A stretch of 62,828 bases of DNA, filler included, from an uncultured Thermoplasmatales archaeon (GTDB taxonomy: Archaea; Thermoplasmatota; E2; DHVEG-1): the NCBI GenBank assembly GCA_964517155.1. It is 9 parts of 9 records of this genome, joined end to end, with 100 filler letters (N's around TTAATTAATTAA, not from the genome) between each part and the next. Parts side by side here need not be neighbours in the genome. Positions count along the whole stretch, not along the records: positions 6,698 to 16,195 come from CAZFAZ010000012.1; 8 more parts are not named here. One strand, 5' to 3'. The notes beneath the pieces are model-generated. The model was given only the letters and a program-made list of their open reading frames with translations. It did no database searches and was not told where the DNA came from. Shown here in pieces: positions 1,540 through 16,195 of this stretch (position 1 is its first letter; each line of letters starts with the position of its first letter). The position numbers and the translations under genes are program-made.

Positions 1540-2973
<1,434 letters not shown>

Positions 2974-3036
2974 AAAAAATGTTTTTTTAAACTAGTATAA
3001 ACTAATATTTGAGAAGAAGATCGAGTGAAATAAAAA

Positions 3037-3192
3037 TTATTTCTTTAGTTTTCTTATTGTAAACTCTCCAATACCTGTAGGCAGTATCTCTATTTCATCT
3101 CCATCGTTTATATCGTGGGCTTTCGCAAGTTGACTTGGTATTGTTACCACCAAACTGCTACCCACAACTCGGGCTTTTCTTGTTAGAGGCAT
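3037..3192 (-). CDS. AbrB/MazE/SpoVT-family DNA-binding protein (51 aa)
   Basis: MPLTRKARVVGSSLVVTIPSQLAKAHDINDGDEIEILPTGIGEFTIRKLKK, read manually. Swapped-hairpin pattern GxSxxVTIP...IxxGD. Confidence 0.85.
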   Translation of the reverse strand: MPLTRKARVVGSSLVVTIPSQLAKAHDINDGDEIEILPTGIGEFTIRKLKK

Positions 3193-3348
3193 CTCCCATC
3201 CACCACACAAATTCAGTAATGTATACGTGAATATATATATGTTTTGATATTTTCAAATAGCTCTAAATATGAACACTTATAAATATTAAAATAGTATATT
3301 TTAGAAATCTAAAACACCAAGATTCGTATAGTAAAAAAAAAATAAAAT

Positions 3349-3642
3349 TTATTTTGGTTTTTCTATTTTACCAAATTCTTTTTTTCTTTCTTTTGTATTC
3401 ATACCTGTTGCTTCGAATAAAAAGTCATTCCATTTTTTTATAATACTGTAATCACCGCATACTTTTTTAGGTGGCTTGATATCTACGATTAAAAAATTTT
3501 TTTCTTGTTTAATATCAATTTTTCCAATGCCTTCTACTTCAAATTTTATACCAGAATAAATGTCGCCTTTTGCTCCAAAGAATCTGTTTATGAGCACTCC
3601 AACATCTGGATTATGTCCTTTCTTGATTCTATATTCTCTCAT
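3349..3642 (-). CDS. Conserved archaeal hypothetical protein (DUF5611-like)
   Basis: MREYRIKKGH N-terminus and WNDFLFEATG..xKERKK C-terminus. Confidence 0.75.
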   Translation of the reverse strand: MREYRIKKGHNPDVGVLINRFFGAKGDIYSGIKFEVEGIGKIDIKQEKNFLIVDIKPPKKVCGDYSIIKKWNDFLFEATGMNTKERKKEFGKIEKPK

Positions 3643-6010: not shown

Positions 6011-6597
6011 ATGGATGATTTAATACAAAATAATAGAATAGATAATGTTATAGAAAGAATTAAAACTGGAATTGATGGATTAGATACTCTTGTCCAGGGC
6101 GGTCTTCCAAAAGGAACTTTTGCAGTTGTAACCGGAGGACCGGGTACTGGTAAAACAATATTTGCATTGCAGTTTTTGGCAAATGGAGCCTTAAAATATA
6201 ATGAAAAAGGATTATTTATAACTGCAGAGCAAAACATAGAAGATATTGTCTCACAAGCAAAGCAATTTGGATGGGATCTAGATCAAATGGAAAACACAGG
6301 AAAAATAAAAATAGTTTCATTAATTGGAAAACAAATATTTGAAGATGAGACCATGAATGAAATTAAACAACTTATACAAGAAAACCATTATGAAAGAATC
6401 GTATTTGATAGTATTACATCACTTTTAAACGCACCATTTTCAAAATATAGTATAGTAGATCATGCTGATAGAGGACTTCAACCGCATGCGCTAAGTGAAA
6501 TGAGCAGAGCAAATGTTATAAATTTTATAGATTTTATTAAAAAACAAGGAATAACAACTGTAGGAATATCTCAAAAAATAGAAGGCTTACCTGGAAA
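6011..6597 (+). CDS. KaiC/RAD55-family RecA-like ATPase (3' end lost at gap)
   Basis: RIKTGIDGLD, GGLP, Walker A GGPGTGKT, Walker B IVFDS. Confidence 0.9.
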
Positions 6598-6697
6598 NNN
6601 NNNNNNNNNNNNNNNNNNNNNNNNNNNNNNNNNNNNNNNNNTTAATTAATTAANNNNNNNNNNNNNNNNNNNNNNNNNNNNNNNNNNNNNNNNNNNN
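6598..6697. other. Artificial contig linker 1
   Basis: 44 N + TTAATTAATTAA (stops in all six frames) + 44 N. Confidence 0.99.
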
Positions 6698-6758
6698 CTC
6701 CAGTTTTTCAATAAGTTATTTAAAGAGTATTTTATTAATAAAGTGCTGATGTTTTCAT

Positions 6759-7334
6759 ATGAGATTTATCAATAAAAAAAACATTGAAATTGATAGAGTG
6801 TTATCTGATTTAGATAAATTTACAATTGATTTTACAAATATTTTAAAAAAACATACAAAATATGTTATTGTCAGCGGATATGTAGCAATTTTGTTAGGAC
6901 GTGCCAGGGCTAGTGAAGATGTTGATATACTTATTCCAAGAATTGATTTTTCAACATTTAAAAATCTTTACATCAATATTAGAAAAAACAATTTTTATTG
7001 TTTAAATGCAGAAGACGAAAAAACTGTTTATTCATATTTAGAAGATAATCTTGCAGTCAGATTTGCAAAAAAAGATACAATGATTCCTAATATTGAAATG
7101 AAGTGGGCTAAGCATGAGTTTGATAAATTAGCCCTTGAAAATACTATTGATGTTTTAATGAAAAATGAAACACTTTGTATTTCTAATCTTGAACTTCAAA
7201 TTGCTTTTAAAGAAGAAGTTCTTAAATCTTTAAAAGATTTAGAGGATGCAGAACACATAAAAGAAGTTGCAAGAGAATATTTAGATAATAGTTTAATTCA
7301 GAAATATAGGAAGATGCTTAATGGGTTTTATTGA
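6759..7334 (+). CDS. Pol-beta-superfamily nucleotidyltransferase-like protein
   Basis: VIVSGYVAILLG-RARASEDVDILI matches the hG[GS]...R.T.DhD NTase pattern. Confidence 0.65.
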   Translation: MRFINKKNIEIDRVLSDLDKFTIDFTNILKKHTKYVIVSGYVAILLGRARASEDVDILIPRIDFSTFKNLYINIRKNNFYCLNAEDEKTVYSYLEDNLAVRFAKKDTMIPNIEMKWAKHEFDKLALENTIDVLMKNETLCISNLELQIAFKEEVLKSLKDLEDAEHIKEVAREYLDNSLIQKYRKMLNGFY

Positions 7335-7512
7335 AGAAAACGAAAAAGAAAGAAAAAGTTTTGTTTGCAAATGGGCAAAATACGTCCGTACTCATAGTGA
7401 TAAAGATTGGTCTTGCCAACAGAATGTGATTATTAACTCTGCATTAAACTCTGCAAATATGACTCGTGAGCAGTTTTTTAAAATGAAGAAAGAAACACAT
7501 TATGTAAAATAA
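7321..7512 (+). CDS. Small hypothetical protein coupled to the NTase
   Basis: 63 aa; overlaps the upstream gene by 14 nt. Confidence 0.7.
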   Translation: MGFIEENEKERKSFVCKWAKYVRTHSDKDWSCQQNVIINSALNSANMTREQFFKMKKETHYVK

Positions 7513-7574
7513 TAATTTTTGAAGTAATATTTTGTGGAAAAGTTCATTGAATCGACTGGCTATTTTTTACTTTT

Positions 7575-7630
7575 ATTAAACTACAGTTTAACTTTAGCTA
7601 TACTATGATTAAACTATAGTTTAATTTTAG
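7575..7630. promoter_or_regulatory. Tandem palindromic direct repeats (putative operator)
   Basis: ATTAAACTACAGTTTAACTTTAG (7575-7597) and ATTAAACTATAGTTTAATTTTAG (7608-7630). The second contains a perfect 18-bp palindrome. A TATA-like TTTTTATA follows. Confidence 0.65.
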
Positions 7631-7667
7631 TAAAGTTTTTATACCTTTAGCACCATAACTAAATAAC

Positions 7668-8834
7668 ATGTATATCAAAAGAGACATAAGAGATAAATTT
7701 GATAAAATCTCAAAAAACTATAACATGGTTGCGGTAGTAGGGGCCCGACAAGCAGGTAAAACTACTTTTCTTAAAAAACAAATTGAAAACAAAAAATCTT
7801 CATATATACTATTTGATGACCCCGATGCTCGTTCTTTATTTGAAGAAGACATTAAAAAATTTGAAAAACAATATGTTTCAAATCATGATGTCTCTGTTTT
7901 AGATGAAGTGCAATACTGTAAAGATGCAGGTAGAAAACTTAAATATCTTGTCGACTCAGAACACAAGCTTTGGATTACATCTTCTTCGGAAATCATTCTT
8001 TCAAAAGAAATACTTTCTTTTCTTGTCGGCAGAGTTTCAATTATTAAGTTATTTCCTTTTTCTATTAAAGAATTTTTAAACTCTAAAAACCAAAAAGAAG
8101 TAACAGCAAAAATATTAGAGCGTAATATCTGGGAGCATGCAACATATGGAGGATATCCAAAGGTTGTTTTAACCGATGATGTTGATATTAAAAAAATAAT
8201 TCTAAGAGACCTTTATGATACAATGCTATTAAAGGATGTAGCACGTACTTTTTCTATCGAAGATATTAGATCTTTAGAAGAATTTTCTAAATATCTTTCT
8301 TTATCTATTGGAGATATTATTTCTTATGATACAATTAGTAGTAATTTAAACATGTCATTTCAAACAGTAAAAAAATATTTTGATGCAATGGAAAAAAGTT
8401 ATTTAATCTATAGAGTTCTTCCATTTTTTACAAACAAAAAAAAGGAAATCATCAAACAACCAAAATTATATTTTATAGATACAGGTATTAGAAATATTAT
8501 TGCTAAAAACTTTGATGTAAATATTGATGGGAAACTTTTTGAAAACTATGTTTTATCTGAACTTTTAAAAATAGGTTTTACCCCAAAATATTGGAGGACT
8601 AAAACCAAAACTGAAGTTGATTTTATAATAGAAACAGAGAGCGACATAATTCCAGTTGAAGTAAAAATTCAAGCAGAAATTGGAAAAATTGAAAAAAGTC
8701 TAAGGGCATTTATTGAAAGTTATAAACCAAAGAAAGCTGTAGTTGTAAGTCTTAAAGGAGCTAAAGGAAAAACAAAGATAAATGGTTGTAATGTTATATA
8801 TACAGATGTGCTTACTCTTGGAAAACAATTTTAA
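7668..8834 (+). CDS. AAA+ ATPase (AAA_14) with DUF4143 / PD-(D/E)xK C-terminus
   Basis: GARQAGKTT, LDEVQ, GGYP, KLYFIDTG, GKLFENYV, EVDFII..PVEVK. Confidence 0.92.
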   Translation: MYIKRDIRDKFDKISKNYNMVAVVGARQAGKTTFLKKQIENKKSSYILFDDPDARSLFEEDIKKFEKQYVSNHDVSVLDEVQYCKDAGRKLKYLVDSEHKLWITSSSEIILSKEILSFLVGRVSIIKLFPFSIKEFLNSKNQKEVTAKILERNIWEHATYGGYPKVVLTDDVDIKKIILRDLYDTMLLKDVARTFSIEDIRSLEEFSKYLSLSIGDIISYDTISSNLNMSFQTVKKYFDAMEKSYLIYRVLPFFTNKKKEIIKQPKLYFIDTGIRNIIAKNFDVNIDGKLFENYVLSELLKIGFTPKYWRTKTKTEVDFIIETESDIIPVEVKIQAEIGKIEKSLRAFIESYKPKKAVVVSLKGAKGKTKINGCNVIYTDVLTLGKQF

Positions 8835-8865
8835 ATTATATTTGGTTGCTTTTAAAAACTAAAGA

Positions 8866-9522
8866 TTAGTATTTTGCTTTGCTATCGCCATGATAAACCT
8901 GAGTGTTATAATCCCAAATTAAATATCTTAATAGTTCTCTATTATCATCTGATGCTGTACTACTTAATAATTTACTAATATTTTGTTTGAATATTTCCTG
9001 GGATTTTTCATAAGAATATTGTACCGTGTTTCCTTTTAATATTGATGAAACAATCTTATTTGTTGGATTTAAAAACAATGCCGCTGTTTTATCTTTTAAT
9101 GGTTTTGTTATGTATTTTGTGTCATAAACAAAAATAAATTCATTTTCATATCCAATAAAGGCAATAGCTCCAGCGTCTATACTATTTGGTCCTAATTCTT
9201 TTGCAGAGTTGCAAGAACGACAATAGATTATCTTATCTTTTAATAAATTAACATTAGTTGAAGTTTCTATAAGAACTTCATTTTTATGACCTGCAATTAA
9301 ATTATTGTCACCGTGTCCATTGAACATGACAAATTTAACAGGTTTTTTTCTCAATGTCCCGGTAACTCTTTTTTTATTTGCTTTATTGTCTTTAAGATCA
9401 ATTACTTTCCTGCCCTTTTTAATTGCTAGATCAACGAGTTCTTTACTCCAGGCTGAAAGATAATACACTACATCATCATGATTTGGACGTGTTATTAAAA
9501 ACATAAACCTTAGATCAAACAA
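8866..9522 (-). CDS. Stand-alone caspase/gingipain (clan CD, C25-like) cysteine peptidase-like protein
   Basis: VMFNGHG (His70), IIYCRSC (Cys104), GAIAFIGY, C-terminal YHGD; no signal peptide. Start is TTG 9522 or ATG 9504. Confidence 0.7.
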   Translation of the reverse strand: MFDLRFMFLITRPNHDDVVYYLSAWSKELVDLAIKKGRKVIDLKDNKANKKRVTGTLRKKPVKFVMFNGHGDNNLIAGHKNEVLIETSTNVNLLKDKIIYCRSCNSAKELGPNSIDAGAIAFIGYENEFIFVYDTKYITKPLKDKTAALFLNPTNKIVSSILKGNTVQYSYEKSQEIFKQNISKLLSSTASDDNRELLRYLIWDYNTQVYHGDSKAKY

Positions 9523-9721
9523 CTATACCTTTTTTTAATGCTCTTATATATGCTAGTTCTATCTCTATTATTTTTTTTCCTATATCATCTTCTTTACTAA
9601 CGTGTTTTATCAGATCATCTCTTGAAAATTCTCCATAGCTTCCGATACAAATCTTTTTATCAACCGGAAAAGTTGATAAACGTGCTTTAACTAGCTCTCT
9701 AATTTCAGCATTTTTATCCAT
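9515..9721 (-). CDS. Small hypothetical protein (68 aa) coupled to the peptidase-like gene
   Basis: MDKNAEIRELVKARL...EDDIGKKIIEIEL. GAGG SD before ATG 9721; its stop overlaps the next gene's TTG start region. Confidence 0.8.
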   Translation of the reverse strand: MDKNAEIRELVKARLSTFPVDKKICIGSYGEFSRDDLIKHVSKEDDIGKKIIEIELAYIRALKKGIVV

Positions 9722-9778
9722 ATATTTTCCTCTTACAAGAATATAAATCAATAGTTATATAACGATTTATTCTATCTT

Positions 9779-9967
9779 TTATATAAATCCTAAGGTGATA
9801 AGCTTATTTAATATTTTCTCGCCTATCTCGGTTTCATTCTTAATTTCAATAAATGCAACATTCCAGGATATAGGTTCTTTATCGATAATTGCTATTATTT
9901 CTTTACGAATATTAATTGGTATATCTGAATACACTCTCATAAATCTGGCTTTTTTATCTCCATCCAT
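9779..9967 (-). CDS. Small hypothetical protein (62 aa)
   Basis: MDGDKKARFMRVYSDIP...ISWNVAFIEIKNETEIGEKILNKL; same strand as the two downstream genes. Confidence 0.75.
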   Translation of the reverse strand: MDGDKKARFMRVYSDIPINIRKEIIAIIDKEPISWNVAFIEIKNETEIGEKILNKLITLGFI

Positions 9968-10042
9968 GATACAAAATCCTAATCTATTTAGAATATTTAA
10001 ATCTGGCTAATATTGAGCATATGTTCTCTAAAAAATTCTCTT

Positions 10043-10987
10043 TTATTTATTTTCAATTATATCCCTAATTGCTTTTCTTACTGCATCATCAGAAGAAAGA
10101 GCAGGCGTCCAACCAAGTTTTTTAATCTTGCTTATGTCAAATTGAAAATGAGGAATATCGCCTTTCCAACCGCGTTTACCGCCGGTATAAGAAAACTTTA
10201 CATTTTTTAACCCCATTTCTTCTACAACAAGCTCACCAATACGTGTGACCTGAGTTGCAGATTCTACTCCAAGGTTAAACACGTTTATCTGCTCATCAGC
10301 ATGAATAAAACCATGTATTATACCCTCTATGCATTCTGTAACATATAAATACGGTTTTTTCTGCATGCCATCTCCAAGTATCTCCAGTTCATGCGGATTC
10401 TTTTTAAGTTTATTAATAAAATCAACGATTACCCCGTGAGTACCACGAGTGCCTACAACATTTGCAAATCTAAACATCCAAGCCTGCATATCAAAAGTAT
10501 GAGCAAACGAGCTAATGAGTCCCTCAGAAGCAAGCTTTGCAGCACCATAAACAGATATTGGTAGAAGAGGTCCGTAATCCTCAGGAAGAGGTTTTGCAGG
10601 TGTTTCACCGTAAATCACACTACTTGAAGAAAACACGATTTTTTTAACACCAGTTTTTCTCATTGCATCTAAAAGATTATAAGTTGCCTGCATGTCTTTT
10701 TCAGCCATGGACGGGTCATCAGCACCACTTCTAACATCAGGGTTAGCTGCGATATGAAACACAATATCATGGCCTTTGATTTCTTCTTCTAATATTTTTT
10801 TATCTAAAAGATCTGCTTTTACAAACGAAAAACAATCATTGTTCTGATGATGAGAAATAAACTCTTTTTTACCAGAGCTTAAATTATCAAAAACAGTAAC
10901 ATTATAACCTTCAGAAATTAATCTATCAACGAGATGACTTCCAATAAAACCTGCTCCGCCTGTGACAAACGCTTTCATAACTTTCAT
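10043..10987 (-). CDS. NAD-dependent nucleotide-sugar epimerase (GalE-like extended SDR)
   Basis: TGGAGFIGSH, FSSSS, YGAAK, RFANVVG. Confidence 0.92.
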   Translation of the reverse strand: MKVMKAFVTGGAGFIGSHLVDRLISEGYNVTVFDNLSSGKKEFISHHQNNDCFSFVKADLLDKKILEEEIKGHDIVFHIAANPDVRSGADDPSMAEKDMQATYNLLDAMRKTGVKKIVFSSSSVIYGETPAKPLPEDYGPLLPISVYGAAKLASEGLISSFAHTFDMQAWMFRFANVVGTRGTHGVIVDFINKLKKNPHELEILGDGMQKKPYLYVTECIEGIIHGFIHADEQINVFNLGVESATQVTRIGELVVEEMGLKNVKFSYTGGKRGWKGDIPHFQFDISKIKKLGWTPALSSDDAVRKAIRDIIENK

Positions 10988-11149
10988 TCTTCCTTTTTTT
11001 GTTTATACTAGAAGTACTTAAGTATTTTTTCTTTTCAAACCAATGAAAAAATGGTTAATGAGCTTCAAAAATCAAAAGAAAGATGTCGAAAGGATAAACT
11101 ACTTTCATTGGAAAAAAATAAAAAAAGAAATGAGTCGAAAATAATATAA

Positions 11150-11164
11150 ATTAGTTAAACTAAT
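11150..11164. promoter_or_regulatory. Perfect dyad overlapping the TA promoter (putative antitoxin operator)
   Basis: ATTAGTT-A-AACTAAT between the TATA-like AATATAAA and the AGGTGA SD. Confidence 0.6.
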
Positions 11165-11185
11165 ATATACTTAGGTGAAATAAGT

Positions 11186-11422
11186 TTGACTCAAGCATTA
11201 ATAAAATTAAATGAAAATATAAATCGTGTTTTAAATATTGTAAAAGCCAGATATGATCTAAAAGACAAAAGCGAAGCAATCGAGTTTATTGTAAAAAAAT
11301 ACATTGAATACGAAAATGAACCTGAGCTAAAGCCAGAGTTTATTAAAAAAATAAACAAAATCAAAAAAGAAAAAAGTATAAGAGTAGATGATTTTGCTAA
11401 GAGGTACGGCTTAGATGTATAA
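11186..11422 (+). CDS. Antitoxin (DUF2683-like, RelB/RHH type)
   Basis: NRVLNIVKARYDLKDKSEAIE...EPELKPEF. TTG start with AGGTGA SD; overlaps the toxin gene. Confidence 0.8.
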   Translation: MTQALIKLNENINRVLNIVKARYDLKDKSEAIEFIVKKYIEYENEPELKPEFIKKINKIKKEKSIRVDDFAKRYGLDV

Positions 11423-11696
11423 TCTAGAAATAAAGCCTACTGCTGATAAAATTTTCAAAAAACTTGCTAAAAAGAACAAAAAACAATTAATAATCATACA
11501 TAAAAAAATTCAAGAAATCAGATCAGAACCAAAACATGATTATAAACATCTTCATCCACCTTTACAAAATTTTTTAAGAGTTCATATTAATTCACATTTT
11601 GTTTTAATATTCAATATAAACCATACAGACGAAATTGTTACAATTTATTATTTTGGTCATCACGATGATGCATATAAATGGAGACCAACTGTGTAA
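11415..11696 (+). CDS. RelE/ParE-family toxin
   Basis: YKHLHPPLQNFLRVHINSHFVLIF...HHDDAY, a basic 93-aa RelE-like pattern. Confidence 0.85.
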   Translation: MYNLEIKPTADKIFKKLAKKNKKQLIIIHKKIQEIRSEPKHDYKHLHPPLQNFLRVHINSHFVLIFNINHTDEIVTIYYFGHHDDAYKWRPTV

Positions 11697-11772
11697 AATA
11701 AGGTGCTGGCTGTAGGCCACAAGCCCCTTTAGAAAAACTTTTTCTTTTGATATTTTCAAATTTTTTATGTAT

Positions 11773-11794
11773 GGGCAAAACATATGTTTTACCC
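11773..11794. repeat. 22-bp near-perfect palindrome
   Basis: GGGCAAAACATATGTTTTACCC, one mismatch. Confidence 0.7.
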
Positions 11795-11877
11795 TAACAC
11801 AGATATTTATAGAATTAAACTAGCAAAATAGTTTAATACAAACTTTGGATTATCTTATATTACCGGGATGATAAAAA

Positions 11878-12057
11878 ATGAGTCGAATTCATCGTGAAGG
11901 TTTAATGTTTAAATGGATTACAAAAGACCATGAAATAACAGTTGGTTTCAAACACATCGGTCATAATAAATGCAGTATATGCGGCATACGTGTTCCTCGC
12001 GGTAACACTATATGTGATAAATGTTTTGAACAAGAAAAAAAGGTTAGTAAAAAATAA
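11878..12057 (+). CDS. Small zinc-finger protein (59 aa)
   Basis: MSRIHREGLMFKWITKDHEITVGFKHIGHNKCSICGIRVPRGNTICDKCFEQEKKVSKK with CxxC-x10-CxxC. Below the ORF-track cutoff. Confidence 0.75.
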   Translation: MSRIHREGLMFKWITKDHEITVGFKHIGHNKCSICGIRVPRGNTICDKCFEQEKKVSKK

Positions 12058-12118
12058 AAAAAATTAGAAAAAATAAGTTATTTTTACTGATTAACTTTGA
12101 TAAGTCTAAAAAACAGTT

Positions 12119-12310
12119 TTATAATTTTTTTATGTTTACTGCTTTAACGCCTTTATCTGTTTCTTCAGTTTCAAATTCTACGCTGTCACCTTCATTTAAG
12201 AAGACTCCTGCGGGTACAGATGATCTGTGTACAAATATGTCTTTTCCATCTTCGCTTTCTATAAAACCGAAGCCTTTTCTTGCATTATACCATTTTATTT
12301 TTCCATTCAT
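12119..12310 (-). CDS. cspA: Cold-shock domain protein
   Basis: GKIKWYNARKGFGFI (RNP1), DIFVH (RNP2), KGVKAVN; GGAGG SD. Confidence 0.95.
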   Translation of the reverse strand: MNGKIKWYNARKGFGFIESEDGKDIFVHRSSVPAGVFLNEGDSVEFETEETDKGVKAVNIKKL

Positions 12311-12440
12311 GTTTTTTTCCTCCTTATACTACCGGAGCATTATTTTTGAAAGGTAGATTATGACATGTTTTATATAGGTTTCTATAGCTTTCTTCTTGAT
12401 ATATTGGTTTTAAATAGGATTATTTTATAAGGAAAAAGAT

Positions 12441-13133
12441 ATGGATGTTCAGATTGTAACTGAAATTGTATGGATGATAGCCCTTGCGTTTTATGCATTT
12501 AGCGTTATTTTACTTACCAAACAAATATATGATTACTTTGTTAATAAAAAACATTTTAAGAAAAGTGTTGCCCTTTACTATAATCGTAAGTTTATTCATA
12601 TCTTTGCAGGAGGGTTTGTAGTTCTTGCAGTTCCATTTGTTTTTGCAAAACCTTATTTTCCTCTGCTGGCAGGTGTTCTTTTAACTATTATTATGTTTAT
12701 TTTTCATAAATCAGGTCGTATTTTATATTGGTTTCAAACAGATGAAAACGTAAGCGATGTAAGTTTTTGTCTGATGTGGGGGATAGCAATTTTTATTTTA
12801 TGGACAGTCTTTGATAATCCTTGGATTGCTATAATGCCGCCTGCATTTATTGCATTTGGTGATGGAGTTACAGGTCTTGTTCGCAACTTTGGTTTTAAAG
12901 AACGTAGCAAACATCCGATAGGTAACGTTTATATGGCTTGTGTTTGTATTCCAATCGGCTATTATTTTGGTGATATTTCAGGAATCCCAGGTATGGCTGT
13001 TTGGGGTGTTATCGCAGCAGTTGCAGCAACCTTTTTGGAAAGATATGAAATAGGACAAATTGATGATAATATACTGATTACTATTGGCTCTACAATCATT
13101 TTGTTTATTGGTGCAGCGCTTGGCTCCGCATAG
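12441..13133 (+). CDS. Dolichol/phytol kinase-like membrane protein (CTP-transferase family)
   Basis: RKFIH, FGDG..G, DDN motifs in a polytopic protein. Confidence 0.8.
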   Translation: MDVQIVTEIVWMIALAFYAFSVILLTKQIYDYFVNKKHFKKSVALYYNRKFIHIFAGGFVVLAVPFVFAKPYFPLLAGVLLTIIMFIFHKSGRILYWFQTDENVSDVSFCLMWGIAIFILWTVFDNPWIAIMPPAFIAFGDGVTGLVRNFGFKERSKHPIGNVYMACVCIPIGYYFGDISGIPGMAVWGVIAAVAATFLERYEIGQIDDNILITIGSTIILFIGAALGSA

Positions 13134-13178
13134 TTTCATAGAAAGGCTTTTATGCTTGCTTTTTTACTACCCTCCCTT

Positions 13179-14477
13179 ATGAATAAGATTACTGATGTTA
13201 AAAAAAAGATAGAAGAACATAATATTAACTGGATTCAAATTCATTTCACGGATCTTATTGGAAGACTACGTGTTTTGCATCTTCCTGTCTCTAGTTTTTT
13301 TAAAAGCGTTGTTGATAATGGTCTGGGTTTTGATGGGTCTAGTGTAGGTTTTGCAAAAGTTGAGAAATCTGATATGATTGTTAAACCTGATCTTGATAGT
13401 TTTCTTGTTTTACCCCATGAATCAGATGAAGCTCGTTTTATAGGTGAGATTTTTGATCTTTCAGGAAAACCTTTTAGCTCATGTCCAAGAAATATACTTA
13501 AAAAAGCAGTGATTTATGCTAAAAACCAAGGTTTTGACAAAGTTATGTTTTCGCCTGAACTTGAATTTTATTTAGTAGAAGAACATGGCAGTCAAGAACC
13601 TAAAATTGTTGAGCAGCAAGGTTATTGTGCACCGCCTTCACTTGATGACTGTAAAGCTTTTCGCAAAACTATATCTGAACATCTGCTAAGATGCGGTTAT
13701 CCAGTTAAATATCATCATCATGAGACTGGTCTGTATCAACATGAAGTAGAAATTCAGGAGCTTGAGGTAGTAGATGCTGCTGATTATTGTATTTTCTTTA
13801 AATATTTAGCGCGTGAGGTTGCAAATTTATTTGAGTTGCTTGTTACTTTTATGCCTAAACCATTTTCTAATGATGCAGGAAATGGTATGCATGCTCATGT
13901 TTGTTTTTATAAAGGCGGTAAAAACTTGTTTCAGGATGATTCTGATGAGTATCGTCTGAGTCAGACTGCTAGATATTTTATCGGTGGGATTTTAGAGCAT
14001 GCACGCGGGATGGCAGCAATTTCCAATCCTACTCTTAACTCGTATAAACGCCTTATTCCTAATTTTGAAGCACCAGTCTATATTGCTTGGGCACAGCATA
14101 ACCGCAGCAGTCTTGTACGTATTCCTGCAAGGAAAAACATTGATGTTGAGGTTCGTAACCCTGATCCTGCAGCTAATCCTTATCTTTTGTATTCTGCAAT
14201 GCTTCATGCAGGACTTGATGGTATTAAAAAGAAAATAGAGTATGAGCCGATATCTAAGAATATCTATAAGATGAGTGAGAATGTTTCAGATTTGAAAATT
14301 AAAAAACTTCCAACTAATCTTAATGAAGCACTTGAGGAACTTGAATCAGATGATGTTATAAAAAAAGCAATTGGTAAAGATACAGTTGATATGTTTATAA
14401 AGTATAAGCAAAAAGAATGGCAGCAGTATATTAGTGAAACTACTGATTTAGAATACAGGCTTTATTTCCATTGTTAA
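13179..14477 (+). CDS. glnA: Glutamine synthetase type I
   Basis: FDGSS, ELEFY, HHE, QHE, TFMPKP, GNGMH, NSYKRL, NRS..RIP, E.R.PDP..NPY. Start is 13179 or 13152. Confidence 0.9.
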
Positions 14478-14490
14478 AAGAGTTTTTTTT

Positions 14491-14877
14491 ATGATTGAAA
14501 AAACTGAAGAGGAATGGAAGAAAATTCTAACACCTGAAAAATATCATATACTACGTGAAAGAGGTACTGAAAGGCCTTTTACAGGTAAATTATTGAAAAA
14601 TAAGGATGATGGGACTTATATTTGCGCAGGGTGTTCTAATCCCTTGTTTTCTTCAGATGTTAAGTTTGATCCTGGTAGCGGTTGGCCTAGTTTTTCAGAT
14701 GTTATATCAAAATCTAGTGTTAAACTAAAAACTGATTACAGCTTTGGAATGAAACGCGTTGAAGTTGTATGTAATAATTGCGGTGGGCATCTTGGTCATG
14801 TTTTTGATGATGGGCCAAAACCTACTGGTAAACGCTTTTGTATTAATTCAGCAAGTCTTGAGTTTATAAAGAGATAA
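14491..14877 (+). CDS. msrB: Peptide-methionine (R)-S-oxide reductase
   Basis: [25 protein letters not shown] and two CxxC. Confidence 0.97.
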
Positions 14878-14923
14878 GATTAAATGAACTTGATATTTTT
14901 AAAATCCTTGTTTTTAGTCTTTG

Positions 14924-15340
14924 TTATTGCTTCACGTATATAGCTGTCACCCATTCGCCATTTAGATATTGCCTAAAAGTGAGTTTATTGTTTCCTTCAG
15001 AAAAAGCGATAAGACAATTGTAATAATGCATTTCATTATTGTAGTAAAACTCAAGGTCAAAATTTAGAGAATTATTATGTTTATAGTTACACCACCAAAA
15101 CGTTCTATTGTCCGTTTGGCCTGTACCATTTGAATTAAATGTATATGAATTGTAAAATGGGATGTTTAGGTTATATTCAGATTCTTCAGTTTCATTTACC
15201 CAAGTACCAAAAAATCTTCCATCATTATCAGCAGTATTATATTTTTTTTCAGTGTTTTGTACTAAGCGAAGACCGACTAGTATCAAAAGAATTGTGATTA
15301 TAATCGCAATTGATATTAATTGATATTTATTGATTTTCAT
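14924..15340 (-). CDS. Membrane-anchored lipocalin-like beta protein
   Basis: N-terminal TM/signal, then FFGTW...YTFNSNGTG. Confidence 0.55.
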   Translation of the reverse strand: MKINKYQLISIAIIITILLILVGLRLVQNTEKKYNTADNDGRFFGTWVNETEESEYNLNIPFYNSYTFNSNGTGQTDNRTFWWCNYKHNNSLNFDLEFYYNNEMHYYNCLIAFSEGNNKLTFRQYLNGEWVTAIYVKQ

Positions 15341-15463
15341 CCTTAGCTCTCAATTCCAAAAACAATTAATGATTTATAATTGTATTTCCCTATGAAAACT
15401 AAATAGCTACAGTATAACAAAAATGGTTTTTACATTAATTTCAGTTTAAAAAATAAAATATTT

Positions 15464-15928
15464 TTATTGTCTACATGAAAAAATCCTATTTTTCTCTAAG
15501 TATTTCTGATGATAATCCTCTGCAGGATAGAATTCTTTTGCAGGAATTATTTCTGTTACAATTTCTTTTTTGTATCTATTTGTTTGTTTTTGTTTTAAGT
15601 CTTCTGCTATCTTTTTTTGTTCTTCTGAATGATAAAATATTACTGAGCGGTATTGTGTTCCAACATCTGGTCCTTGTCTGTTTTTTTGTGTTGGGTCATG
15701 TATATCCCAAAATACATCTAAGAGCTTTTCATAAGATACAACTGATGGATCATATGTTATCTGAACGACTTCTGCATGGCCTGTTTTATCTGTGCAGACT
15801 TGTTCATAAGTAGGATTTTTTGTTTTTCCACCCATATAGCCAACTGTTGTTGAAAGTGCACCTTTTATTTTTTGAAAAGATGCTTCCACACCCCAGAAAC
15901 ATCCTGCCCCAAATGTTGCTTTATGCAT
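15464..15928 (-). CDS. msrA: Peptide-methionine (S)-S-oxide reductase
   Basis: GCFWG, GHAEVV, QYRS, AEDYHQKY. Confidence 0.97.
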   Translation of the reverse strand: MHKATFGAGCFWGVEASFQKIKGALSTTVGYMGGKTKNPTYEQVCTDKTGHAEVVQITYDPSVVSYEKLLDVFWDIHDPTQKNRQGPDVGTQYRSVIFYHSEEQKKIAEDLKQKQTNRYKKEIVTEIIPAKEFYPAEDYHQKYLEKNRIFSCRQ

Positions 15929-16097
15929 CTTTTTTCCTCTTTGCTTTTTTCTCTTTTCTCATCTTTTCTAATTGTTCTTGTGAGTAAAATTTTGCTTTGC
16001 AATTTGGGCAAATGATAGGTGATTCATCTGAACATCTTATCCATCTATGGCCACAAAAATGACAGTTTTCTTTTTTAATTTTATAAACCCCCAGCAC
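15921..16097 (-). CDS. Small zinc-ribbon protein (about 58 aa) coupled to msrA
   Basis: (V)LGVYKIKKENCHFCGHRWIRCSDESPIICPNCKAKFYSQEQLEKMRKEKKAKRKKDA*. The stop overlaps the msrA start (ATGCATAA). Start uncertain. Confidence 0.7.
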   Translation of the reverse strand: MLGVYKIKKENCHFCGHRWIRCSDESPIICPNCKAKFYSQEQLEKMRKEKKAKRKKDA

Positions 16098-16195
16098 AAA
16101 TATTATTTCAATCTTTTAATTTTTTGTATTTTATTTGATTACTCAGTTCGCCCATTTTTCATCATTTTTTAAAGCAGCATTCAGAAAAACTATTG

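Follow-up and report, generated by a model that had tools for sequence, protein, structure and literature searches.

What does a caspase-like protein of 212 amino acids (aa) do in an archaeal cell when its gene is preceded by those of two much smaller proteins? The question is raised by three short genes, termed here A, B and C, at positions 8866..9967 of a 62,828-nucleotide (nt) stretch of DNA (the window), which consists of nine joined parts of the genome assembly GCA_964517155.1 of an uncultured Thermoplasmatales archaeon. A sequence-only reading had taken them for a minimal cytoplasmic protease of the caspase/gingipain type with two small partners. What it described was confirmed and its interpretation is supported: of the three conditions that it had named as refuting, none was found to apply (another fold or variable catalytic residues, homologues without the small genes, and, as searched in PADLOC, a match to a named system). 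We conclude that A, B and C very probably form a conserved operon whose products assemble into a complex, and that C, as judged from its structure model, belongs by its fold to clan CD (the caspase/gingipain fold) and keeps its catalytic dyad intact. The best overall explanation, which we put forward tentatively, is an autonomous protease module of the toxin-antitoxin (TA) or defence type that is held shut by a pseudosubstrate partner.

Organisation of the three-gene locus

The three genes lie on a single 9.5-kb contig (C12; CAZFAZ010000012.1), which occupies positions 6698-16195 of the window and comes from a 1.59-Mb archaeal assembly; the other contigs in the window are joined through runs of N. 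The genes and the elements around them, the latter read from the sequence, are as follows.

9779..9967, minus strand: gene A, 62 aa (P0003), identified by an open reading frame (ORF) call and by homologues upstream of B elsewhere
9515..9721, minus strand: gene B, 68 aa (P0002), from the ATG at 9721 to the stop codon TGA at 9517..9515
8866..9504, minus strand: gene C, 212 aa (P0004), a standalone protein with a predicted clan CD cysteine peptidase fold; a start at the TTG at 9522 would make it 218 aa
9507..9512, minus strand: TAAGGT, a Shine-Dalgarno-like sequence within the 10 nt that separate the stop codon of B from the start of C
9994..10001, minus strand: TATA-like box TTTAAATA, lying 27-34 nt before the start codon (ATG) of gene A
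8836..8865, minus strand: T-rich stretch past the stop codon of C

All three are real genes and not chance ORFs, because C has many relatives and homologues of A and B were found in the same order in dozens of genomes. The sequence-only reading had described three co-oriented genes of 62, 68 and 218 aa, the last two overlapping; the ORFs and their orientation stand, but C is more likely to be 212 aa long. Its start is most likely the ATG at 9504 rather than the TTG at 9522, because all C relatives start with M-x-LITRP, the identical database gene call is 212 aa, and the ATG is preceded by TAAGGT. With this start, B and C would therefore lie 10 nt apart and would not overlap. Counted from the same ATG, the catalytic candidates are His64 (codon 9315..9313) and Cys98 (codon 9213..9211), which correspond to H70 and C104 in the 218-aa numbering. 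The reading frame of B reaches 9515..9751 (78 aa) if begun at a TTG.

The Shine-Dalgarno-like TAAGGT in the spacer suggests that B and C are translationally coupled, and the TATA-like box is a putative archaeal promoter for a three-gene operon. The T-rich stretch, a possible terminator, faces the 3′ end of a convergent AAA_14-DUF4143 gene (7668..8834, plus strand).

Fold and family of protein C

The AlphaFold2 model of C, based on a 44-row alignment, had a predicted local distance difference test score (pLDDT) of 96.8 and a predicted template modelling score (pTM) of 0.92. It is an alpha/beta/alpha sandwich with a central six-stranded sheet (strands 2-6, 34-38, 58-62, 92-96, 115-119 and 202-206). 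The dyad residues follow the order seen in clan CD, with N62-G63-H64-G65 after strand 58-62 and S97-C98 after strand 92-96. The motifs picked out earlier by eye (VMFNGHG, IIYCRSC, GAIAFIGY and a terminal YHGD) were all found in C, and the clan CD fold that had been proposed on their account was borne out by structural comparison. Foldseek gave 37 matches in the Protein Data Bank (PDB) at E<=1e-3, and all top matches listed were clan CD proteins, led by SAVED-CHAT (2.3e-7) and gingipain R (1.1e-5) and followed by caspase-4, legumain, separase and MALT1. VIA-align placed RgpB first, with Z 16.6 over 174 residues at 2.6 A; further Z values were 15.7 for SAVED-CHAT, 14.0 for Kgp, 13.6 for separase, 13.4 for legumain and 12.3 for procaspase-7, the range for clan CD being Z 12.2 to 16.6 across 159-185 residues.

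The predicted dyad is conserved, as had been expected of it. N62, G63, H64, G65 and C98, together with eight further positions, were invariant in all 44 aligned relatives, and G63, H64, G65 and C98 were the sole invariant columns across 129 of 129 more diverse representatives. D10 and D138, also invariant in 44/44 relatives, could line the substrate pocket. C is likely to be an active protease.

At the sequence level C belongs to no described family and founds one of its own. The libraries scanned were Pfam (a copy with models to 2025), NCBIfam 20.0 and PADLOC-DB v2.0.0, and in them no model matched C, A or B; in PADLOC, 0 families were found for any of the three at E<=10, in line with the earlier view that the trio corresponds to no named PADLOC system. 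DUF4847, DUF1189, WKF, DUF7675 and XopD came up in these scans as sub-threshold noise. Kinship with the gingipains (peptidase family C25) had also been suggested, and it holds for structure, RgpB being the best match, but hardly for sequence: the window protein gave nothing against PF01364 (Peptidase_C25) even at E<=10, while the model was matched by 2 of the 44 family members (best 7.2e-7) and 1 of the 129 (7.7e-4). The sequence-level link that would place C in C25 specifically is thus marginal. The window protein had no match to PF12770 (CHAT) either, a model touched by 2/44 members at E 0.12 and by 1/129 at 0.0098. Compared with PDB sequences, the C family profile found no clan CD chain and no gingipain; its best match there, an aminotransferase at 0.041-0.049, was not taken up. 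A viral structure library returned giant-virus caspase-like proteins only, and weakly.

The family is large and uniform in size. A word-indexed search found 192 relatives at E<=1e-3, nearly all of the 120 listed being 201-241 aa long. Among clusters at 50% identity there were 1309 representatives at E<=1e-3, 587 at <=1e-10 and 166 at <=1e-30; their lengths were almost all 203-225 aa and the proteins are standalone. The named sources were mostly Patescibacteria (candidate phyla radiation, CPR) and DPANN-type archaea. The sequence-only reading had noted that C carries neither a signal peptide nor an extra domain, and both parts were upheld, as was the view of C as a standalone cytoplasmic protein: strand 1 begins at residue 2 of the model, so that there would be no space for a signal peptide, and no longer or fused forms were found, although this last is weak evidence. 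A few relatives have a C-terminal hydrophobic tail (P0163, P0267).

Conservation of the A-B-C cassette

Conservation of the gene order was assessed in two samples. For the first, a degenerate DNA pattern for the N-terminal LITRPNHD..YL was searched in one-per-species genomes and gave 42 loci, from Microgenomates-type CPR phyla, Woesearchaeota, Nanoarchaeota, Aenigmatarchaeota, Micrarchaeota, one Bathyarchaeia metagenome-assembled genome (MAG) and several MAGs labelled Gammaproteobacteria. A complete C ORF was present in 40 of the 42. Directly upstream of it and co-oriented, a homologue of B was found at every one of these loci (40/40; E 6e-21 to 5e-5), and a homologue of A lay upstream of B in 39/40 (E 6e-24 to 2e-9). 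The exception was locus L009, where A is reduced to its first ~15 residues and fused in frame to B (1220-1540). The remaining two loci, L026 with C cut by the contig end and L043 with an in-frame stop in C (2926-3630), also have A and B. The copies at L009 and L043 are in decay. The proposal that homologues of C keep both small genes was therefore well founded: over all motif loci B was present in 42/42 and A in 41/42.

The LITRP pattern captures about one fifth of the C family (57/267 sequences), and for this reason a second sample was taken with a hidden Markov model (HMM). It comprised 20 loci from HMM matches in whole genomes, of which 4 were duplicates and 16 were new and without the motif. 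The order A-B-C was found in 15/15 assessable new loci, independent of the first set, while the sixteenth is cut right after B. The genes are tightly packed: the A-B gap has a median of 1 nt (<=15 nt in 27/40 loci) and the B-C gap a median of 1.5 nt (<=15 nt in 33/40 loci). Pairwise distance matrices of A, B and C were correlated (r 0.66-0.72), at a level that none of 2000 Mantel permutations reached; the genes are thus inherited together, which need not mean that they co-adapt. When 200 flanking ORFs were clustered, no fourth gene emerged as conserved.

Distant C-like genes were accompanied by at most a B-like gene. In the host phylum four such genes (E 1e-10 to 1e-20) were found, at L004 (genome G277), L002 (G034), L005 (G220) and L006 (G235); a B-like gene precedes those of L004 (E 6e-4) and L002 (E 9e-8), and no A was detectable upstream of any of the four. 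A similar pair occurs in the Methanofastidiosa virus BK063666.1 (L055, 2202-3145), in which a 66-aa protein with a B-like helix-Gly-helix motif (hhalign probability 47.6%) overlaps by 4 nt a 248-aa C-like protein (hhalign probability to the C family 98.6%) that contains the motifs VGHG and LSC and has a transmembrane tail at its C-terminus. Because these distant genes keep at most a B-like partner, the B-C pair may be the older core of the module.

The small proteins A and B

A and B represent two new protein families. In the alignment of its homologues A has invariant F9, P17, R21 and W35, and its AlphaFold2 model (pLDDT 95.3) consists of a helix, a beta-hairpin and two helices. No convincing PDB neighbour was found for this fold, the best VIA-align Z being 4.2 among 48,161 chains and the best Foldseek E 0.84; ideas of a ribbon-helix-helix or winged-helix protein are therefore unsupported, and a weak or absent fold match does not make the fold new. 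The A profile found nothing among PDB sequences (best 0.62). One longer match to A (P0271, 187 aa) carries the A domain at its end and seems to be a gene call that was extended too far. DUF7713 in 7/40 A members (best 0.0035) and MksE in 2/40 were weak and scattered and were not counted as evidence.

In B, G27 and G48 are invariant and R14 is near-invariant. The most distinctive feature is a motif (hydrophobic)-S-(hydrophobic)-G at 24-27, in which G27 is kept in 41/41 sequences and positions 24 and 26 are always or nearly always hydrophobic. A designed double-psi barrel (0.0078) and OmpR-type regulators (0.13), returned by the B profile from PDB sequences, were rejected as too weak, and HTH_41 in 2/41 B members at 0.062 was likewise weak and not counted as evidence. 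ESM Atlas look-ups led only to unnamed 'hypothetical protein' clusters. The two proteins have a strand-helix-Gly-helix pattern in common, and A is possibly a distant paralogue of B.

A predicted complex with B in the active site of C

The three proteins were submitted to one three-chain structure prediction (C + A + B, with B as the scored partner and purpose-built alignments). The interface score ipSAE was 0.92 in each of 3 runs, which share at least 95% of contacts and have a partner pLDDT of at least 89. When B was swapped for two unrelated proteins the score fell to 0.00 and 0.01; when C was replaced it was 0.68, and B is therefore predicted to bind A by itself as well. The model thus supports binding of B; the mark in question was attained by 116 of 157 solved complexes and by 2 of 215 mismatched pairs.

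The predicted interface on C comprises residues 10-12, 15, 64-67, 97-99, 122-130, 140 and 173-200, and the interface has about 112-117 contacts. Enzymes of clan CD build their substrate site from the loops that follow strands 1, 3, 4 and 5, and it is in these loops that the interface residues of C lie. B would touch C 64-67 (the His64 loop) and 97-99 (the Cys98 loop). The contacts of lowest predicted error are those of B 22-25 with C 124-129 and of B 54-58 with C 193-197, and the C-terminal helix of B is predicted to pack on C helix 186-200. In the model A touches B through its residues 12, 15-17, 20, 23-27, 32, 55 and 58-62. It is rather probable, from this model, that B occupies the active site of C with its conserved strand in the substrate groove. 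The small proteins had earlier been taken for substrates, inhibitors or activators of the protease; that choice is narrowed solely by the prediction that places B in the catalytic cleft.

Distribution and phylogeny

Two classes of 201 genomes each were searched for C at E<=1e-10. In the CPR class to which a Collierbacteria genome belongs, 16 genomes have C, with internal stops in three (G600, G601 and G450); in the DPANN class of a Woesearchaeota genome there are 9, among them a single copy with a stop (G769). Three copies are present in one 1.1-Mb Roizmanbacteria genome and two in another genome. In the host phylum C was found in 4/401 genomes, the window's own included and the others distant, and in one sample of the host family in 0/24 other genomes.

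A maximum-likelihood (ML) tree was built from 41 sequences of C. In it the Bathyarchaeia copy falls inside a CPR clade (support 96/95), and the window copy forms a long unsupported branch. Nine loci with the trio (L008, L011, L014, L027, L034, L038, L040, L042 and L046) come from MAGs titled Gammaproteobacteria or Pseudomonadales. The copies so titled are near-identical or sister to Microgenomates-type CPR copies (L011 to L021, L038 to L015), and because of this tight grouping the labels of these MAG records are probably wrong.

Genomic context

The contig of the trio is native to the archaeon: over its right half it shares 81-85% DNA identity with two genomes of the same genus. One of these, G001, has a dehydrogenase-like gene after the epimerase gene where the window has the trio, which lies in a variable island of the native contig. 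The G + C content of the trio (0.281) is no outlier against that of the genome (0.318, standard deviation 0.034 in 1-kb windows). As to the host, a search for McrA gave no match. Two further features of the contig are of note.

7668-8834, plus strand: AAA_14 + DUF4143 ATPase, PADLOC candidate PDC-S01 (E 2.4e-79), convergent with C and 31 nt from the C stop
11186-11696, plus strand: DUF2683-type small protein followed by a ParE/RelE-like toxin with an 8-nt overlap, near the trio

PDC-S01 adjoins the trio in 4/41 loci (L018, L024 on both sides, L048 and the window), which may be a recurrent association or merely a shared island. The DUF2683/ParE-RelE stretch is absent between the epimerase and CspA genes in G001 and is therefore taken for a second small insertion on the contig. 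Within this insertion a 59-aa ORF (11878-12057, plus strand) with two CxxC pairs (CSIC...CDKC) and no Pfam match is a possible zinc-ribbon protein. Of the neighbours named in the sequence-only reading, the AAA-DUF4143 gene and the ParE/RelE-type toxin were thus confirmed, but the 'nucleotidyltransferase (NTase) pair' at 6759-7512 had no Pfam or PADLOC match at E<=1e-3. This pair (191 aa and 63 aa, plus strand) has a 76%-identical DNA copy in the same-family genome G003. Elsewhere in the window, a KaiC/RecA-like ORF at 6011..6649 is cut by the N run at about 6600-6697 (contig join).

A survey of the 128 nearest neighbours of 40 trio loci found, besides PDC-S01, the following established or candidate conflict genes at a distance of at most two genes: AbiEi/AbiEii (L014), PDC-S41 (L023), SoFic (L024, L030), HicA (L032), SocA/Panacea (L034) and HepT or HEPN-NTase (L047, L048). 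Among the flanking ORFs surveyed, no genes of clustered regularly interspaced short palindromic repeats (CRISPR) systems or of cyclic-oligonucleotide-based anti-phage signalling systems (CBASS) were conserved beside the trio.

Mode of action and alternative explanations

The mechanism that we favour would run as follows. The products of one autonomous operon would assemble into a complex in which B wraps C, its conserved strand (22-27) lying in the substrate groove, paired with C 124-129 after strand 5 and covering the His64 and Cys98 loops, while A would pair its strand 23-27 and its C-terminus with B. B would serve as a pro-domain supplied in trans, as a pseudosubstrate or as an antitoxin, and would hold C closed, while A would stabilise or regulate B. 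Were B lost, displaced or cleaved, through stress, infection or loss of the cassette, C would be freed and would cut cellular or invader proteins, the module acting as a tripartite TA or abortive-infection cassette. That B inhibits C, and is neither its substrate nor its cofactor, and that the module is TA- or defence-like, is our tentative proposal, held with somewhat less than even confidence. The fuller version is more doubtful: an undescribed tripartite TA or abortive-infection system of ultra-small symbiotic prokaryotes, with C as a minimal caspase-fold toxin, B as a securin-like partner, A guarding or sensing, and B-C as the ancient core.

Several observations weigh against a conflict module of this kind. 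The enrichment of conflict genes near the trio is an impression, not a statistic, and many loci have housekeeping neighbours only (FtsZ/FtsA at L011 and L028, CysS at L029, TruB at L030, UvrA/UvrC at L046). No match was found by tblastn of 72,556 plasmids or by searching the LITRP DNA pattern in IMG/VR. In the ML tree the archaeal label needs only 2 changes, as if the family had resided long within each domain rather than been transferred rampantly between them. Since A has no recognisable DNA-binding or known fold, autoregulation in the manner of type II TA systems is unsupported, and the paralogy of A and B is weak (hhalign of the two profiles: probability 21%, E 0.001, 31 columns). As for the complex, the calibration of the interface score is only roughly valid with custom alignments and three chains. 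In the model the groove strand is equally compatible with a true substrate as with an inhibitor, and a cofactor that completes the active site of C would also remain compatible.

These last two options lead to the principal rivals. B, perhaps together with A, could be the natural substrate, which C would cut at or near the hydrophobic-S-hydrophobic-G motif (Gly27) so that the freed fragment becomes an effector or regulator, in a one-shot maturation or switch. The predicted strand in the groove, with its contacts to the His and Cys loops, fits such a role, as do the invariant G27 and the hydrophobic positions 24 and 26, and genes for substrates neighbour clan CD proteases in known systems: Csx29 cuts Csx30, and caspase-like proteases cut bacterial gasdermins. 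However, the large interface, which includes both helices of B on C 173-200, points to a stable partner rather than a transient substrate; no conserved P1 candidate (Arg, Lys, Asp or Asn) stands ahead of the B motif, and B, at 68 aa, has no downstream effector domain. We consider this explanation unlikely. Slightly less probable again is that A and B are obligatory cofactors that complete the substrate site of C, as NS2B completes the flaviviral NS3 protease, the heterotrimer being the active enzyme with a cellular job such as regulated turnover of specific proteins in episymbiotic cells and not a part in conflict. The strictly kept gene order and tight coupling, the predicted strand addition beside C 124-129, the housekeeping neighbours at many loci and a family tree that splits largely by domain all agree with it; but B is predicted to sit on the catalytic His and Cys loops themselves, and an essential housekeeping enzyme is ill-fitted by a prevalence of ~4-8% in the commonest lineages, by copies with stop codons and by multi-copy genomes.

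The catalytic chemistry may also be questioned. Some clan CD members are transpeptidases or ligases (legumain-type ligases, GPI transamidase, PorU), and legumain and plant peptide asparaginyl ligases are among the fold matches of C (Z 12.3-13.4, a likeness at the fold level only). It is nevertheless very improbable that C joins A or B, or parts of them, to another molecule, as both small proteins terminate in hydrophobic residues and lack a conserved motif for recognition or leaving at the C-terminus, the neighbourhood holds no conserved gene for an acceptor or carrier, and the closest structural matches are hydrolases. Least credible of all is a non-catalytic caspase-fold scaffold in a structural or regulatory trio that works without proteolysis. 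Pseudo-orthocaspases are reported to exist (PMC6426788), but such pseudo-variants have lost the dyad, whereas Gly-His-Gly and Cys are invariant in 129/129 representatives of C. We therefore retain the inhibited protease module as the preferred explanation.

Whichever role applies, the C family may show the smallest working form of clan CD (~212 aa), regulated in trans by two proteins of 60-75 aa without known relatives. Although its 1309 clusters show it to be widespread, Pfam, NCBIfam and PADLOC have no model for it, and it is concentrated in CPR and DPANN lineages, whose conflict repertoires are poorly known. If the TA or abortive-infection proposal is true, the module would add a new class of protease toxin and a compact, switchable protease-inhibitor pair for engineering, and if the trio is an undescribed tripartite conflict system, C would amount to a new MEROPS-level family in clan CD. 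Even a housekeeping role would leave three new protein families and a testable complex.

Comparison with known systems

Proteases of clan CD are drivers of cell death and of immunity in organisms ranging from bacteria to humans, and the known prokaryotic members are large, secreted or fused to sensors. Full-text literature searches, supplements aside, found no paper on such a three-gene module and none joining Patescibacteria, DPANN and caspase; the passages searched out in PMC6393860 and PMC12988326 do not mention the trio.

The best structural neighbour of C is gingipain R (RgpB, MEROPS C25; PDB 4ief and 1cvr), with which it has the order of His-Gly and then Cys in common. C25 gingipains are secreted proteins with a signal peptide, a pro-domain, an Ig-like domain and a C-terminal sorting domain; they exceed 400 aa (catalytic plus immunoglobulin-like parts), whereas C, at 212 aa, has no signal peptide and no additional domain. 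In RgpB an inhibitory polypeptide occupies the active site, and B is predicted to do likewise in C; the pro-domain of RgpB is a cleaved part of the same chain, whereas B is the product of a separate gene.

The CHAT proteases are represented by SAVED-CHAT (8tl0), the top Foldseek match of C, and by TPR-CHAT/Csx29 of type III-E CRISPR (7y84). CHAT defence proteases are prokaryotic and cytoplasmic and act on the products of neighbouring genes. They are fused to SAVED or TPR sensors and switched by cyclic nucleotides or a CRISPR complex, whereas C is standalone.

In gene arrangement the trio resembles tripartite TA operons (omega-epsilon-zeta, paaR-paaA-parE and toxin-antitoxin-chaperone), which likewise consist of three short, tightly coupled, co-directional genes with the enzyme last; a small protein predicted to lie over the active site of the enzyme would be a further likeness. 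Like TA modules, the trio is patchy in distribution, sometimes multi-copy, found in decayed copies and near other TA or defence genes. No DNA-binding fold, as would be typical of a type II antitoxin, was detected in A. To our knowledge no described TA toxin is a clan CD protease, and none surfaced in the literature search.

The model proposed for B has a precedent in separase and securin (MEROPS C50; 7nj1 and 5u1t), also of clan CD and with Z 13.1-13.6 to C. A small separate protein, lying in the active site of separase as a pseudosubstrate, keeps the enzyme inactive. Separase is eukaryotic, has more than 1000 aa and includes a large helical domain; securin, a disordered protein, has no sequence relation to A or B. 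What is new in the present locus is a family of clan CD that is joined, in a conserved cassette, by two families of partner proteins, the principles by which it would work being known from other protease-inhibitor and TA systems.

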